A DNA stretch of 64,000 bases from an uncultured Alphaproteobacteria bacterium (lineage in GTDB: Bacteria > Pseudomonadota > Alphaproteobacteria > Rs-D84). The translations under genes were made by a program, and so were the position numbers. The stretch spans positions 1,216 through 65,215 of the forward strand of contig CAMWON010000002.1 in the NCBI GenBank assembly GCA_947175875.1. Direction: 5' to 3'. The notes below the pieces were generated by a model. It was not told where the DNA came from and did no database searches. It was given only the letters and a program-made list of their open reading frames with translations. This document shows positions 10,541 to 55,730 of the stretch, piece by piece; positions within the stretch are counted from its first letter, which is position 1, and every line of letters starts with the position of its first letter.

Positions 10541-10585
10541 TGGAAATTCAAATTTCTGGAAATAATAATCGAAATAGGATATAAT

Positions 10586-10770
10586 TCCCATCGTAATAGG
10601 GCTTCCTGTTATGCGAGCGTGGAAATCTCGCGACAAAAATCGCCTGCGCAGGCGTTAAATGCTCCACCCAACGCGGGTTGGAGACTGGTTGAATATAAAG
10701 AATAGACCAGGCATGAATTTTTGCATGATTTCCACCCTCCAACCGCCCTATATGTTTGGCGGTCTTTTTT
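10586..10770 (+). ncRNA. Structured RNA element, copy A of a 3-member family (unclassified)
   Basis: TATAAT at 10580-10585, with the same TATAATTCCCATCG as copy B. Long-range helix GAGCGTGGAAATC (10615-10627) / GATTTCCACCCTC (10727-10739). Hairpin CTCCACCC-aacgc-GGGTTGGAG (10662-10683). CAACC, then ACCGCC-loop-GGCGGT + CTTTTTT terminator ending at 10770. No ORF. Confidence 0.55.
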
Positions 10771-10880
10771 GTTCATGCCCCGGTTTTGCGTCTTCTTAAA
10801 CAATAAAATTGTGCCGGGGCTCTTATGTGTTGTTCAGTTCCGCGCGCGTTGCCTGACGTGCCATTGGGGACCCCTGTGTG

Positions 10881-10916
10881 ATAAAAATAAAAACCATCGG
10901 AAAAATTCAGATGGTT
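10881..10916 (-). terminator. Intrinsic terminator of the RusA-like gene; carries the CTCCAACC module
   Basis: Minus strand: stop-AAAAAA-CTCC-AACCATC-loop-GATGGTT-TTTATTTTTAT. It has the same CTCCAACC-plus-hairpin layout as the 3' ends of elements A, B and C. Confidence 0.6.
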
Positions 10917-10925
10917 GGAGTTTTT

Positions 10926-11495
10926 TTACACCATAAACGGCAGGTTTTCCAGTGTCCCTTCGACCACGCGGACGTTTACGTCAATCCACATAAATATGGT
11001 GTCGGGTGTGCGCGGTATGTCCGGACAGAACATATCGGTGGACAACAGGTGGCTGGTATTTACCGACAATTTGGTTATCAAATGGTCGTCGTCCAGCAGT
11101 GTGTAAATCGGACCGATATCGCGCGGCGTGTTTGCACCGATTTCGTGTTCATTTTGCGGCGCGCGCAGGCCGTCGAACAATGTCTTGATGCGGTTGTCGA
11201 TGTCGGACCGCGTCATGCCGACGATTTCCGGGTGCATCATCTGGATGTCCAGTTCCGCAATCAATTTCAAATTCGGCGTTATAATCGGGTTCCAGTCGAT
11301 GCCCCCGATATGGCGTGTGGTAATGGGGCTTTTGGTGGCGCCGGGCATCATGAACTTGGTCATGTTGTTCCATGGGCTGTGTTCAACCAGCTTTTTTAAC
11401 TGGGGGTGAAACTGCATGCGGATATCCGAAATATGCTGGGCGCGTTTCTTTGGATTAATTAAAATTTCTCCGAAATATAGCAGTTTGAACTTCAT
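10926..11495 (-). CDS. Hypothetical protein with RusA-like endonuclease motif
   Basis: 189 aa, RBS AAGGGGA 9 nt upstream. RSDIDNRIKTLFDGLRAP...LLDDDHLITKLSV resembles E. coli RusA [30 protein letters not shown] (from memory). The overlapping plus-strand ORFs were rejected. Confidence 0.6.
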   Translation of the reverse strand: MKFKLLYFGEILINPKKRAQHISDIRMQFHPQLKKLVEHSPWNNMTKFMMPGATKSPITTRHIGGIDWNPIITPNLKLIAELDIQMMHPEIVGMTRSDIDNRIKTLFDGLRAPQNEHEIGANTPRDIGPIYTLLDDDHLITKLSVNTSHLLSTDMFCPDIPRTPDTIFMWIDVNVRVVEGTLENLPFMV

Positions 11496-11572
11496 GGTAT
11501 TTTATCCCCTTTTTCCTTGATAAGTATACCAGAAATTGCTATGGTTTTCATAGAAAAAAGAAAGGAATTTAA

Positions 11573-13972
<2,400 letters not shown>

Positions 13973-24742: not shown

Positions 24743-25216
24743 ATGCGTATTTTGGGGATTGACCCAGGGCTTTTACATACGGGCTGGGCGGTGATTGAAA
24801 GCAATGGCTCGGCCCGAAAATATATCGCCAGCGGCGTTATACTGCCGCCGGCGAAATTATCGTTTCCGGAACGTCTGGCGATAATATTTCGCGGCGTGTC
24901 TGAGCTATGCGAAACTTTCCGGCCGGATGCATGCTCGATTGAGGTTATATTTGTTAACGTCAATCCAAAGACGACACTGGTTCTGGGCCAGGCGCGTGCG
25001 GCCGCAATTGTTGCGGTTTCAACCCGCGATATTCCGGTTTATGAGTATGAGCCGAACAAGATAAAAAAAGCACTGACATCGGCCGGGCATGCATCAAAAG
25101 ACCAGATTGACAAGATGGTGCGCATTTTATTGCCGGCGGCAAATCCAAAGACCCCGGACGAGGCGGATGCGATTGCAATCGCACTGGCGCACAGTAATAT
25201 GAGCAGATTTATTTAA
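24743..25216 (+). CDS. ruvC: Crossover junction endodeoxyribonuclease RuvC
   Basis: 157 aa. Motifs: MRILGIDPGL..TGWAVIE, EYEPNKIKKA, DEADAIAIAL. Confidence 0.93.
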   Translation: MRILGIDPGLLHTGWAVIESNGSARKYIASGVILPPAKLSFPERLAIIFRGVSELCETFRPDACSIEVIFVNVNPKTTLVLGQARAAAIVAVSTRDIPVYEYEPNKIKKALTSAGHASKDQIDKMVRILLPAANPKTPDEADAIAIALAHSNMSRFI

Positions 25217-25220
25217 ATCA

Positions 25221-25317
25221 CTGGATTGCTTCACATACGTTCGCAATGACAATAGTGATGCAACACCCGGATTGTCCACATTGTCATTGCGAGGGGCGCA
25301 GCCCCGTGGCAATCCAG
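25221..25317. repeat. Palindromic MITE-like element, copy 1 (97 nt)
   Basis: CTGGATTGCTTC...TCGCAATGACAAT...TGTCATTGCGAGG...GTGGCAATCCAG. The outer and inner arms are self-complementary. Confidence 0.8.
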
Positions 25318-25395
25318 TATTATATATGACTACATTCCGTTTTTAATATATCTCTTGTTTATGGTATAATGTGTCCATAACCAAAGAGAGAAACA

Positions 25396-25680
25396 ATGAA
25401 AAAAGATTTTATCCAAGAACAGGACATGAAGTTACGCATGAAGCATAGAATGCTGCTGCGCGCGTTTTTCATCAATTTAATTTTGGGCGTTATTGCGCTG
25501 GCGCTGACGTACTTTCCGATACTGCTTTACGTCGCCGTATGGGCGACGGGCATTTCCCCGATGGTAATGTATTTTTCCATTATCGGCGGGATTGCATTCT
25601 GGCAGATGCTGGGGGTGGTGCTGTTTCTGGTGCCGGGAATTTCCGCATGGATGGAAAGACGCAGTTTGGCCAATTATTAA
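25396..25680 (+). CDS. Small integral membrane protein (3 predicted TM)
   Basis: 94 aa, RBS AAAGAGAGA. Hydrophobic segments LILGVIALALTYFPILLYVAVWA, MVMYFSIIGGIAFW, GVVLFLVPGI. Confidence 0.5.
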   Translation: MKKDFIQEQDMKLRMKHRMLLRAFFINLILGVIALALTYFPILLYVAVWATGISPMVMYFSIIGGIAFWQMLGVVLFLVPGISAWMERRSLANY

Positions 25681-25683
25681 TAT

Positions 25684-25706
25684 ACCGGGCGTATGCCCGG
25701 TTTTTT
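25684..25706 (+). terminator. Intrinsic terminator
   Basis: CCGGGC-gtat-GCCCGG followed by TTTTTT. Confidence 0.75.
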
Positions 25707-25716
25707 GTTTGATTTA

Positions 25717-25804
25717 CTGGATTGCTTCGCTATCGCTCGCAATGACAATGAGTCTGGAATGACTGTCATTGCGAGGAGGCGTCTGCGCCGACGTGGCAAT
25801 CCAG
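25717..25804. repeat. Palindromic MITE-like element, copy 2 (88 nt)
   Basis: It has the same four conserved blocks as 25221-25317, in the same orientation; the central part differs. Confidence 0.8.
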
Positions 25805-25811
25805 TAACTAT

Positions 25812-25839
25812 TTGCAAATCGTAATTTTCCTGTTATAAT
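25812..25839 (+). promoter_or_regulatory. Sigma70-type promoter of RNA element B
   Basis: TTGCAA-16 nt-TATAAT, the same hexamers and spacing as the tRNA-Met promoter. Confidence 0.65.
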
Positions 25840-25845
25840 TCCCAT

Positions 25846-25998
25846 CGCATCGGGTGATACCCGGTGTGAGGTGTCATAACCTCTCAAAGTGAAAACTCCA
25901 ATATGGTTGGAGGCCTGCGATATATTTGAATAAGCGGGACTATTACTTTGGTAGTTATGAACCTCCAACCGCCCTTCATCACGGCGGTACGTTTTTTT
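25846..25998 (+). ncRNA. Structured RNA element, copy B (unclassified family), leader of a small HTH gene
   Basis: 5' hairpin CGGGT-gat-ACCCG. Long-range helix GAGGTGTCATAAC (25868-25880) / GTTATGAACCTC (25954-25965). Hairpin CTCCAA-tatgg-TTGGAG (25896-25912). CAACC, then CCGCC-loop-GGCGG + T7 terminator. The RBS GGAGG begins 13 nt after the T-run. Confidence 0.6.
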
Positions 25999-26020
25999 AT
26001 AAAAACCAATGGAGGAAAAA

Positions 26021-26290
26021 ATGAAAAAAATAGATGAAACAACCGCGCGTCTGGGCGTGGCAATGCGGCATGCGCGTAATAAATGTAAAATGCCCTTGGA
26101 CGAGGCGGCGGCAACACTGCGAATAATGCCGGATGAATTATACGAATATGAACGTGGCCGTGTTATGTTGCCATATGATATAATGGAGCGCGTGTTTATA
26201 ATGGGCTATAAAATGATGATGATACGCATGCTGGAAAGTGTGTATCGACGACAAAGAAAAATGTTTAACAAATTTAATCAAAATAAATAA
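26021..26290 (+). CDS. Small XRE-type helix-turn-helix protein
   Basis: ORF 26009..26290. ATG 26021 is preferred because GGAGG lies 5 nt upstream. LGVAMRHARNKCKMPLDEAAATLRIMPDELYEYERG is an XRE/Cro-like HTH. Confidence 0.6.
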   Translation: MKKIDETTARLGVAMRHARNKCKMPLDEAAATLRIMPDELYEYERGRVMLPYDIMERVFIMGYKMMMIRMLESVYRRQRKMFNKFNQNK

Positions 26291-26292
26291 AA

Positions 26293-26318
26293 ACACCGGG
26301 GAACCCCGGTGTTTTTAT
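26293..26318. terminator. Bidirectional intrinsic terminator
   Basis: ACACCGGGG-aa-CCCCGGTGT flanked by A- and T-runs between convergent genes. Confidence 0.75.
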
Positions 26319-26329
26319 TGCGCTGTTTT

Positions 26330-27910
26330 TTATTCCTTGCGCATGGGATATTTGCCGTCGATTAAGTTCTGGCGCACGACGTGATGTTTTATCTTTTGCG
26401 TGCTGGTCGTCGGCAGTTCGTCCGTTGTCATTGCAAAGTGTGTCACCCACTTATAGCTGGCGACCTTTTTATTTGCATTCGCGATTGCTGCGCCCAACTT
26501 TTCCATTGTCATGTCCGGTTCAACACTAAAGACGCCGTATGCAACGGTTTTATCCTTTATCTTGTGTTCGAATACCGCAACATTGTTTACGCCCGGGATT
26601 TTCATGAACAGGGCCTCCAGTTCGTCCGGATAAACGTTTTTGCCGGAATCCAGAACGATAACCTGTTTTTTACGGCCGGCAAAGTGCAGTTCGCCGTTTT
26701 TATCCATTGAAACCATGTCGCCGGTGTTAAAGAATCCGCGTTCGTCAAATACAACCTCGTTTGCATCAGGGTTGTTTAAATATCCGCCAAACACCTGGTG
26801 ACCGCGAATCCACAGAACGCCGACGCCGTCTTCGTTCATGTCGCGGATTTCGCATTCGTTGTTTGTTGTCGGTGCACCGAATGCAAACGGAAAACGTTTC
26901 TTTAACGGTTTGGAAATGCATACGGGGCCGACGGTTTCTGTCAGGCCATATCCCTGAATAAAGCGCATGCCTAAGCGTTCATAGAATGTTTCAACCTCTG
27001 GCTTGGTCGCGGCACCGCCCGCAATCAGCAGCGATACACGGCCGCCGAATATTTCACGGATTTGATTTTGAACGCGGTTTACGATAAAGCCCAAACCGAT
27101 TTTGCGCAAAAATTTGCCATATTTCAAAACCGTGTTTACCAGCCACCATTTGTTCTGAGATTTGGCCGTATCGATAATACGGTTGCGAATAACCTCAAAC
27201 AAACGGGGAACGGCCGGAATTGCATGCGGACGGAATTTTTTGAAATCCGCCATGATTTCCTTTGGGTTAACGGTCGGCTGAAGCAATACACCCGCGCCAT
27301 AGTGCAGCGTTGCCAGCAATTCAACCGCAAACCCGAATATGTGATACATCGGCAGGAAGCCGTACATAATATCGCCCGGCCCGATATAGTCGCGCATGTC
27401 GTCCAAAGACTTAGAACATTCGATTAAGTTAAAGTGCGTCAACGGCACAACCTTTGGCTTGCCGGTGGAGCCCGATGTAAACGACAGGGTCGCCACGTCC
27501 AACGGTTCCAGCGGTGCCGGTTTCAGGCGACCGTTTGCCTTGCCGTCTTCTTGGGTAATGTCAAAGAACTTGAACTTCTTGGTCTTGTAAAAGAACGATT
27601 TTTCTGCACATACCATATGACAGTCGGTGGTCGATGTCATGTTGTCATATTCAAACGGTGTTAAATTGGTATCAAGCAGCAGAACCGTTCCGCCCAGATA
27701 CCATATCGCGAACATGGTCGTCGGCATCTGGGGGATATTGTGCGACAGCACACCCACAATGTCACCGCGTTTCATTCCGGCCGCATGCAGTTCGGCCGCA
27801 CGGCGTTTAACCAGTTCAACAAACCCGGAAAATGTCACCCCTTCGCGGACCAGGAACAGGTTGTCCGGCCATGTGGCGGCGGCTTTTTCCAGCAATTGGT
27901 ACATGTTCAT
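26330..27910 (-). CDS. AMP-dependent acyl-CoA synthetase/ligase (FadD-like)
   Basis: 526 aa. Motifs: LSFTSGSTGKPKVV, GYGLTET, FNTGD...GR.K. Confidence 0.85.
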   Translation of the reverse strand: MNMYQLLEKAAATWPDNLFLVREGVTFSGFVELVKRRAAELHAAGMKRGDIVGVLSHNIPQMPTTMFAIWYLGGTVLLLDTNLTPFEYDNMTSTTDCHMVCAEKSFFYKTKKFKFFDITQEDGKANGRLKPAPLEPLDVATLSFTSGSTGKPKVVPLTHFNLIECSKSLDDMRDYIGPGDIMYGFLPMYHIFGFAVELLATLHYGAGVLLQPTVNPKEIMADFKKFRPHAIPAVPRLFEVIRNRIIDTAKSQNKWWLVNTVLKYGKFLRKIGLGFIVNRVQNQIREIFGGRVSLLIAGGAATKPEVETFYERLGMRFIQGYGLTETVGPVCISKPLKKRFPFAFGAPTTNNECEIRDMNEDGVGVLWIRGHQVFGGYLNNPDANEVVFDERGFFNTGDMVSMDKNGELHFAGRKKQVIVLDSGKNVYPDELEALFMKIPGVNNVAVFEHKIKDKTVAYGVFSVEPDMTMEKLGAAIANANKKVASYKWVTHFAMTTDELPTTSTQKIKHHVVRQNLIDGKYPMRKE

Positions 27911-55562: not shown

Positions 55563-55637
55563 GCGGGCATAGTACAAAGGCTAGTATGCAAGCCTTCCAA
55601 GCTTGAAATGCGGGTTCGATTCCCGCTGCCCGCACCA
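55563..55637 (+). tRNA. tRNA-Gly(TCC)
   Basis: GCGGGCATAGTACAAAGGCTAGTATGCAAGCCTTCCAAGCTTGAAATGCGGGTTCGATTCCCGCTGCCCGCACCA. It forms a full cloverleaf with anticodon loop CTTCCAA. Confidence 0.9.
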
Positions 55638-55643
55638 TAGATT

Positions 55644-55730
55644 GGGCGTGCGCCGGAGTTGGAGAGCCGGGGCAGACTGTAAATCTGTTGGCTTAAGCCT
55701 GAGCTGGTTCGAATCCAGCCACTCCCACCA
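55644..55730 (+). tRNA. tRNA-Tyr(GTA), long variable arm
   Basis: GGGCGTGCGCCGGAGTTGGAGAGCCGGGGCAGACTGTAAATCTGTTGGCTTAAGCCTGAGCTGGTTCGAATCCAGCCACTCCCACCA. Anticodon loop CTGTAAA. It has one acceptor mismatch (C4:T69) and C at position 8. Confidence 0.8.

Follow-up and report, generated by a model that had tools for sequence, protein, structure and literature searches.

A leader RNA with two mutually exclusive folds and a putative conditional terminator upstream of a small helix-turn-helix gene in an uncultured gut alphaproteobacterium

A 64,000-nucleotide stretch of the genome of an uncultured alphaproteobacterium (contig CAMWON010000002.1; hereafter the window) contains a short structured element, copy B, immediately upstream of a gene for an 89-amino-acid XRE-like helix-turn-helix (HTH) protein. 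Here we describe copy B as a 5' leader RNA, define the family to which it belongs and weigh the ways in which it may act on the gene behind it. Copy B and its gene lie on the plus strand. The element is preceded by a sigma-70-type promoter (25812-25839; 10 of 12 matches) consisting of TTGCAA (25812-25817), a 16-nucleotide spacer and TGnTATAAT, in which TATAAT occupies 25834-25839, and transcription is predicted to start at about 25844-25847. An intrinsic terminator follows at 25968-25998 (-9.8 kcal/mol). Its stem (25968-25988) is formed by ACCGCC and GGCGGU around a 9-nucleotide loop and is followed by ACG and a run of seven U residues (25992-25998). A simple terminator scan missed it because of the 9-nucleotide loop and the 3-nucleotide spacer. 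After the U-run come the ribosome-binding site (RBS) GGAGG (26011-26015) and, 22 nucleotides past the run, the open reading frame (ORF) of the HTH protein (ATG at 26021, stop codon ending at 26290). The protein matches the Pfam family HTH_31 weakly, with 21.6 bits (E = 2.8e-4) against a cut-off of 27. A promoter scan detected no promoter-like site between the -10 box of the leader and the start of the HTH gene, so the gene is readable only through the terminator of the element.

The segments between promoter and terminator can pair in more than one way. The -10 box is followed at 25840 by TCCCATCG, which also follows it in copy A (10586) and has no third occurrence in the window. The 5'-terminal hairpin P0 (25847-25867; GCAUCGGGU/ACCCGGUGU) has 9 bp and a GAU loop. 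Next come a1 (25868-25883; GAGGU-G-UCAUAAC), the 5' arm of helix P1a, which can alternatively close as a local hairpin GAGGU/ACCUC, and b1 (25885-25892; CAAAGUGA), the 5' arm of helix P1b, whose partner is the loop of P4. An A-rich tract leads into the P2 hairpin (25896-25912), in which region 1 (CUCCAAU) pairs with GGUUGGAG of region 2 (CTCCAA..TTGGAG in DNA). Region 2 as a whole (GGUUGGAGG; 25905-25913) is the 3' arm of P2 plus one G, and it is also the 5' strand of an alternative closing helix, the putative antiterminator. The P3 hairpin (25914-25938) has a covarying stem and a conserved interior, GAUAUAUUUGAAUAA (family consensus GAAUAUAUUGAAUAA). The P4 hairpin (25940-25954; CUAU..GUAG) belongs only to the second of the two folds described below, and its loop (25943-25951), termed b', is the 3' arm of P1b in the first. 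The segment a' (25954-25965; GUUAUGA-ACCUC) is the 3' arm of P1a in the first fold and a single-stranded junction in the second. Region 3 (CCUCCAACC, or CCTCCAACC in the search pattern; 25962-25970) is common to three helices, giving CCUC to P1a, all 9 nucleotides to the antiterminator and ACC to the terminator. The complete P1 thus joins GAGGU-G-UCAUAAC..CAAAGUGA (25868-25892) to UUACUUUGG..GUUAUGA-ACCUC (25943-25965), with P2 and P3 enclosed.

Many of these parts had been proposed in an earlier reading of the letters alone (the sequence-only reading). The TTGCAA-16-TATAAT promoter and the element of about 150 nucleotides, the start identical to copy A, the segments GAGGTGTCATAAC (25868-25880) and GTTATGAACCTC (25954-25965), which pair as a long-range helix, the CTCCAA hairpin, CAACC, the terminator with its T7, the RBS and the 89-amino-acid ORF were all found where it had put them. 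Its 5' hairpin CGGGT-gat-ACCCG exists but is longer than claimed, and the structure that it called a single variable hairpin is in fact two, P3 with its conserved internal loop and P4.

Relatives were collected with the pattern CCAAN{3,5}GGTTGGAGN{35,65}CCTCCAACC in one genome per species. At least 120 loci were returned, where by our own calculation about 25 matches would be expected by chance. Nearly all of the matches listed lie in gut metagenome-assembled genomes of animal or human origin, with titles of Candidatus Enterousia, Rickettsiales bacterium or uncultured Alphaproteobacteria, and several genomes contributed 3-4 loci among the matches listed. A covariance model, R1, was built from 103 aligned cores with a hand-set structure, because an alignment made with MAFFT alone and folded with RNAalifold was too gappy. 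R1 recovers at least 132 copies in about 1 Mb of sampled loci (numbered L001 and so on), of which about a dozen fall outside the exact pattern. In the window it finds exactly three, copy B (86.9 bits, E = 9e-21), copy C (87.0 bits) and copy A (66.6 bits), which bears out the earlier proposal of a shared RNA family; the other GTTGGAG sites of the window are coding sequence or tRNA. From -10 box to U-run, copy A occupies 10580-10770 on the plus strand and copy C 57983-57791 on the minus strand. The three have the same architecture. Copy B folds with -59.7 kcal/mol (z = -5.4; none of 200 shuffled sequences was as good), and the z-scores of copies A and C are -3.7 and -6.9. In copies A and C the P0-equivalent hairpin, P1 and the terminator differ in sequence from those of B with the pairing kept.

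Two mutually exclusive folds are each supported by covariation across this family, in agreement with the alternative pairings of the sequence-only reading. In fold I, which comprises P1, P2 and P3, standard pairs fill 95.2% of the alignment cells of P1a, P2 and P3, compared with 35-50% when the partners are slid by 1-3 columns, and both sides have changed in 19 of the 28 pairs. P2 is paired in 96% of cells and P3 shows changes on both sides in all 5 of its pairs. P1b cannot be aligned and yet is copy-specific: native duplexes average -8.5 kcal/mol and cross-paired ones -2.3 kcal/mol (p = 9e-57). Exact complements of at least 7 nucleotides are present in 80-90% of copies as opposed to 2-5% of cross-paired controls (80% and 2% for b1).

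In fold II, 97% of cells are paired. P4 (CUAU..AUAG in the family) covaries, its second pair (225-265) being UA in 73-75 cases and AU in 25. The local closure GAGGT...ACCTC, which the earlier reading had offered as a third pairing, is real and covaries as well. In this a1 hairpin (GAGG..CCUC) pair 3-20 is GC in 47-49 cases, AU in 28 and GU in 23, and the local partner is U in 28 of the 29 copies that have A at position 2 of GRGG. GGUUGGAGG and CCUCCAACC pair in 99% of cells, and the internal loop of P3 (GAAUA/AAUAA) is conserved. RNAalifold, run on the alignment with no structure imposed, returns exactly fold II. Since the search pattern fixed regions 2 and 3, the evidence on these two regions comes from divergent copies found only with the model. 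Regions 1, 2 and 3 read CUUCUGCU, UGCAGGAGG and CCUCCUGCC in L017:6073 and CUCCUGAU, GUCAGGAGG and CCUCCGACC in L096:535, and in L003:3019, L050:4075 and L078:2582 the ninth pair has gone from G:C to U:A or A:U. Region 3 thus appears to track region 2 in the divergent copies, a signal that we regard as real but thinly sampled.

The two folds compete at two places. P4 and P1b exclude each other, since the loop of P4 serves as the 3' arm of P1b, and the closing helix of fold II excludes the terminator because the terminator 5' arm needs AACC. This sharing of bases between the alternative helix and the terminator 5' arm is conserved across family members, as is looked for in an attenuator. Of the 132 copies, 123 have an intrinsic terminator (median -10 kcal/mol), and 121 of these 123 start its 5' arm within the conserved CCAACC, most often with the first A.

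The structure is probably one of RNA rather than of DNA, because its many G-U pairs make the pairing strand-specific. This bears on the possibility that the element works at the DNA level, as a repeat resembling miniature inverted-repeat transposable elements (MITEs), a recombination site or a target-site duplication, with CCTCCAACC and GGTTGGAGG as protein-binding or recombination sites. Such a role would suit the threefold occurrence of the motif in each element, the palindromic repeats nearby and the position of leader copies at synteny breakpoints between the window and its relative L078. It is largely refuted by the covariation, with its abundant G-U pairs and strand-specific compensatory changes. 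Moreover, P1a, P1b and P3 vary in sequence between copies with the pairing kept, and the promoter on the 5' side and the terminator and RBS on the 3' side are fixed, always in a single orientation. We give a DNA-level role almost no credence. An integron attC site was rejected on inspection, as the order and sequences of the core sites do not fit. On the minus strand the site at 25890-25912, over P2, was flagged as terminator-like by the scan and could stop antisense transcription from convergent genes; P2 is trailed by a U-run on the opposite strand throughout the family because of the conserved A-rich tract on its 5' side.

For copy B, fold I (-59.7 kcal/mol) is more stable than fold II (-51.1 kcal/mol) by 8.6 kcal/mol with the terminator region and by 5.1 kcal/mol without it. 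So strong a preference could mean that the leader is a constitutive 5' untranslated region that does not switch at all, a stabiliser, an insulator or an RNase III site, and that the second fold represents folding intermediates. A 5'-terminal hairpin and a long helix are typical mRNA stabilisers, and the leader has both in P0 and P1. The strong Shine-Dalgarno sequences downstream (GG[AG]GG in 54% of leader-driven genes and in 16% of the other genes of the same loci) would also suit such a module. Selection on fold I alone does not explain the covariation specific to fold II, however, which involves P4, the local hairpin and regions 2 and 3, and it would be wasteful to conserve a terminator between a promoter and its gene. 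We therefore rate a constitutive module as very improbable.

The reading that we consider probable, with some reserve, is that copy B is a cis-acting leader RNA with two states, a conditional intrinsic terminator (transcription attenuator) for the HTH gene. The strong promoter would start an RNA of about 150 nucleotides able to adopt either fold. In fold I, a1 and b1 pair with a' and b' to form a P1 of about 20 bp, and region 1 pairs with region 2 to form P2. The last four bases of CCUCCAACC (AACC) are then free for the 5' arm of the terminator, and transcription would end, releasing the RNA of about 150 nucleotides and leaving the gene off. In fold II, a1 is closed on itself and b' is placed in the loop of P4, and region 2 (GGUUGGAGG) and region 3 (CCUCCAACC) close a three-way junction. 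With AACC taken up, polymerase would read through into the HTH gene and the gene would be on. The layout is that of a 1:2, 2:3 and 3:4 attenuator with an additional lock, the pairing of a1 and b1 with a' and b'. Fold I is presumably the co-transcriptional default, because P2 is the first to form and P1b has its 3' arm transcribed earlier than P4 has, and at 5-9 kcal/mol more stable in copy B it would be the thermodynamic default too.

Several points weigh against a conditional terminator. The start site, termination and read-through of copy B are inferred from sequence. Fold II is markedly less stable than fold I and P2 precedes region 3, so that switching needs a trigger. The terminator of copy B is weak by standard criteria, and read-through could be constitutive. 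On its own strand copy A is followed by no ORF, which leaves it without a gene to regulate. The covariation of the antiterminator helix rests on about seven divergent copies, most sequences having come from the exact pattern, and the model to which the alignment was fitted has our own structure built in.

If fold I is the default, expression would require a factor to keep a1 and b1 or region 1 from pairing, or to stabilise the junction. Attenuation by a leader peptide was rejected, as region 1 lies under no conserved leader-peptide ORF: an in-frame upstream AUG occurs in 16-17% of copies per frame in all three frames. Our best guess for this factor is not a metabolite but an RNA or a protein that acts on the 5' half. 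We rank it so because the nearest relatives of the family use the equivalent segments for RNA-RNA pairing and because the gene set suggests no metabolite. A metabolite trigger is possible, given the conserved GAAUA/AAUAA interior of P3.

The gene set is diverse. The leaders precede genes for 114 distinct proteins. About 52 of these begin with a signal-peptide-like sequence, and many are rich in cysteine; the cysteine-rich secreted proteins recur in several paralogous groups. Sixty-three complete proteins have at most 130 amino acids, and 43 of them lack a signal-peptide-like N-terminus. At least 20 of these 43 match XRE-type HTH families of Pfam (20 match HTH_31, others HTH_19 or HTH_3). Overall about half of the copies precede small XRE HTH genes and about half precede genes for secreted proteins. 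Of the loci with homologous HTH genes that were found by protein similarity alone, both of those long enough to tell (L228 and L229) carry the element directly upstream, in keeping with the sequence-only reading; L230 is cut off. Copy C leads an operon of a C5 DNA methyltransferase and an HpaII-type restriction endonuclease (57772-55845, minus strand), the expression of which would be delayed or gated if a conditional terminator stands before it. Two tRNA genes adjoin this operon at 55563-55727.

The diversity of the cargo also bears on a metabolite or ion riboswitch, in which the three-way junction of closing helix, P3 and P4 would be the aptamer and a ligand would stabilise fold II and prevent termination. 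Second-messenger riboswitches are found as multi-copy leaders of diverse genes, a distribution that the present family shares, and its unpaired nucleotides are conserved in P3 and the junction next to a terminator/antiterminator design. The cargo, on the other hand, consists of XRE regulators, secreted cysteine-rich proteins and a restriction-modification operon, with no enzymes or transporters of a single pathway. Two upstream competitor strands that form ahead of the putative aptamer would be atypical, and prophage relatives of the element (below) use the junction loop and strand as antisense against an RBS, which points to RNA-RNA recognition. A riboswitch appears unlikely to us.

The conditional terminator has a further competitor, in which the element is a stand-alone gene for a small RNA (sRNA) like sRNA-Xcc1 or c4. 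The transcript of about 150 nucleotides, or a processed junction core, would act in trans and the downstream gene would be expressed by leakage through the terminator. Nearly all copies have their own promoter and terminator, and a promoter with at least 9 of 12 matches was found in 101 of 126 copies, its -10 box ending 26-27 nucleotides 5' of P1 in most. Copy A is an orphan with no downstream ORF; it lies after T2SS-E/F-like genes and before a convergent 189-amino-acid ORF, with promoter, full structure and terminator all present. L078 has three tandem copies whose spacing fits only short ORFs or none. The A-rich tract and the U-tail could, in our judgement, bind Hfq. Right behind the closing helix, 105 of 106 copies have a purine, and in 95 of 106 the next base is C, which recalls the tail of RNase P substrates. 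Substrates of RNase P such as the c4 precursor have such a tail, but here the two bases also belong to the terminator stem. The closest known RNA, sRNA-Xcc1, has itself been mapped as an 88-nucleotide sRNA (PMC2996969). Other observations favour a role in cis. Behind 117 of the 132 copies lie an RBS and an ORF, mostly 40-60 nucleotides past the motif, with no promoter between. Copy-specific complements of a' and b' exist only within their own transcript, with none at the RBS that follows, and the conserved overlap of the terminator with the alternative helix would be needless in a plain sRNA gene. On balance we hold a stand-alone sRNA to be rather unlikely.

A mixture of the two modes can be imagined, although we regard it as speculative and improbable. 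The junction core would be freed from read-through transcripts, perhaps by an RNase P cut 5' of GGUUGGAGG. Its private a' and b' would then pair in trans with a1 and b1 of nascent transcripts of the same locus, blocking P1, forcing the antiterminator and sustaining read-through. Such a self-addressed switch would account for a and b sequences that vary from copy to copy in an otherwise conserved element. Each of dozens of leader-gene units would have an independent, heritable on or off state without a change in DNA, so that surface proteins and small regulators of a gut symbiont with a reduced genome would in effect undergo phase variation based on RNA.

The surroundings of copy B are as follows. 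The region is flanked by ruvC (24743-25216) and a fadD-like AMP-binding gene (26330-27910, minus strand), which is convergent with the HTH gene and shares with it a bidirectional terminator at 26286-26319. This setting is the one that the earlier reading had described. Its two palindromic repeats do not enclose the cassette, however; both are upstream of it and flank a gene for a 94-amino-acid membrane protein. The repeat at 25704-25807 (about 105 bp) has outer arms TTACTGGATTGC/GCAATCCAGTAA and inner arms TCGCAATGACA/TGTCATTGCGA, and its 3' end abuts the -35 box of copy B. The other copy is at 25208-25327, the two measuring about 105-120 bp as a pair. The first repeat precedes the membrane-protein gene, which has no leader, the second precedes copy B, and a promoter follows each. 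The 3' end of the repeat, GGCAATCCAGTA, stands just 5' of a promoter in both places. The junction GGCAATCCAGTAA-TTGCAA recurs upstream of B-type leaders in L021, L022, L106 and L108. The repeat may carry or abut an outward promoter. The RBS and start regions of the membrane-protein gene (25379-25404) and the HTH gene (26004-26029) are 81% identical over 26 nucleotides (AACCAA.G.AG.AAA.AATGAAAAAA), which hints that the two cassettes may share an origin.

The closest relative among the loci collected is L078, with 97% amino-acid identity in gyrB and about 85% nucleotide identity. In L078 (98-6688) fadD is followed by three tandem leader copies (2359-2999) and then by orf189-gyrB. In the window (10580-13972 and 25812-27910) orf189-gyrB lies by copy A and fadD by copy B and the HTH gene, 13 kb apart. 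L004 and L046 have a leader with a different cargo gene after fadD. Because these arrangements and the cargo differ among relatives, the leaders mark variable, rearrangement-prone spots, and the rearrangements possibly arose through recombination between leader copies. No sign of horizontal transfer was found, the family being lineage-specific and chromosomal and the leader as diverged as the flanking core DNA (86% and 85% nucleotide identity between the window and L228). The horizontally moving cassette of the sequence-only reading is thus not borne out, and only the position varies among relatives. L008 (CAVGNU010000003.1), titled Bacteroides fragilis, has a leader copy and encodes ruvA, yebC, ruvC and the 94-amino-acid membrane protein, which are 58-91% identical to their counterparts in the window; almost certainly this contig is alphaproteobacterial and was misbinned. 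L031, titled Muribaculaceae, was noted alongside it.

No RNA motif for 'Enterousia' was found in the literature, where searches with the motif strings returned unrelated papers. With no earlier description found, the leader family is previously undescribed. To our knowledge nothing is known of gene regulation in this clade of gut Alphaproteobacteria with reduced genomes. A structured RNA family of at least 132 examples that would gate small XRE regulators and secreted, probably surface, proteins is therefore of interest in these uncultured organisms.

Known RNA families were searched for relatives. With Rfam 15 only tRNAs reach the gathering score in the window. With permissive filters the only recurring match, below threshold, is sRNA-Xcc1 (RF02221, cut-off 53 bits), which scores 25.4 bits at copy B, 37 bits at L027 and 43 bits at L096 (E = 1.6e-6 in a 351-nucleotide search); three of six other family loci scanned have no match at E <= 1. 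Copy B is not a member of RF02221 by the Rfam criterion. sRNA-Xcc1 was described in Xanthomonas campestris as an sRNA whose ends were mapped by RACE (rapid amplification of cDNA ends), and it is carried by integron cassettes, prophages and plasmids, where symE or ORF6N genes follow it (PMC2996969; bioRxiv 10.1101/2025.06.18.660453; bioRxiv 10.1101/2020.03.17.996009). A report on integron cassettes places it 5' of symE, with 'a divergent regulatory mechanism' (bioRxiv 10.1101/2025.06.18.660453), seven copies are reported in Xylella (PMC12189769), and it stands upstream of an ORF6N gene in APSE phages.

Fold II of the leader family and the Rfam consensus alignment of sRNA-Xcc1 share a three-way junction with a 9-bp closing helix (GGYYGGRGG/CCYCCRRCC), the P3 interior AAUAYA..AAUAA, P4, a UUNNNNA junction strand and an RCC tail. 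Both RNAs are multi-copy and lie just upstream of small genes. There are also differences. The Rfam model covers the 3' junction only, whereas the leader family adds P0, a1 and b1 and the extra closing strand of region 1 in one transcript, and its hosts are uncultured gut Alphaproteobacteria. The two have a common architecture and are probably homologous, and we regard the copy B family as probably a distant relative of sRNA-Xcc1.

The prophage forms of sRNA-Xcc1 are informative. The c4 antisense RNA of phages P1 and P7 (immI region) has an a1b1/a'b'/a2b2 layout and is processed by RNase P. This layout and processing were reportedly described by Citron and Schuster in 1990 and by Hartmann et al. 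in 1995 (cited in PMC4919922). We collected 38 Xcc1-like loci (L231-L267 and L191) from viral contigs with a pattern of invariant Rfam consensus positions. An exact-consensus search (GGCCGGGGG..CCCCCGGCC) of viral contigs gave GC-rich chance palindromes and was discarded, and BLAST of the Rfam sRNA-Xcc1 consensus against plasmids gave nothing. In 18 distinct prophage loci, exact 7-9-nucleotide complements of the P4 loop and of the junction strand are found on either side, upstream as well as downstream, and in 16 of the 18 the downstream complement of the P4 loop (b2) abuts the GGAG of the next gene. Examples are L232 (7020-7290), L231 (minus strand), L235 and L240. By this analysis the complements correspond to a putative antisense layout a1b1/a'b'/a2b2 of the c4/immI kind. 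R1, which was built from alphaproteobacterial sequences only, detects prophage Xcc1 loci with E = 1e-6 to 1e-2, and the hits span an upstream GAGG..CCUC arm equivalent to a1. The complements offer a testable c4-like mechanism with a cis target for sRNA-Xcc1, a widespread RNA of mobile elements, that is not described in the sRNA-Xcc1 papers examined.

The same comparison sets the leader family apart from c4. Between 25600 and 26400, Rfam gave no match to c4 (RF01695) or isrK at E <= 10. The c4 and c4-a1b1 motifs have been catalogued (PMC2864571). Both c4 and the leader family present two short recognition sequences (a' and b') on a structured RNA, with complements (a1 and b1) upstream in the same transcription unit. 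The leader family has no a2b2 target at the downstream RBS, unlike c4: downstream complements occur in 2-4% of copies, the same as in the cross-paired control, and duplex energies match the control. On these grounds we rejected the idea that the P4 loop or the junction strand acts on the RBS behind it in the manner of c4. The sole RBS-pairing signal is generic, in that CCUCC can pair with the strong Shine-Dalgarno sequences of these genes. The read-out of c4 is a translational block with Rho-dependent polarity, whereas that of the leader family is apparently an intrinsic terminator, which overlaps the closing helix; in prophage Xcc1 the terminator lies between b1 and the junction. The immunity or controller module to which the earlier reading had likened the HTH gene and its leader is a resemblance only, since the element equally precedes secreted proteins and the HpaII-type operon, but the kinship with sRNA-Xcc1 and c4 gives it some support at the level of ancestry.

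Close mechanistic parallels are also the classical attenuators and transcriptional ON riboswitches, such as the trp-type leaders (1:2, 2:3 and 3:4) and the pbuE adenine riboswitch. The leader family has in common with them three consecutive segments of which the middle pairing excludes the terminator. It differs in having no leader peptide and in the extra long-range P1, a helix of copy-specific sequence that would lock the off state. A two-fold design in which locking arms peculiar to each copy are combined with a common terminator switch would be an unusual attenuator architecture.

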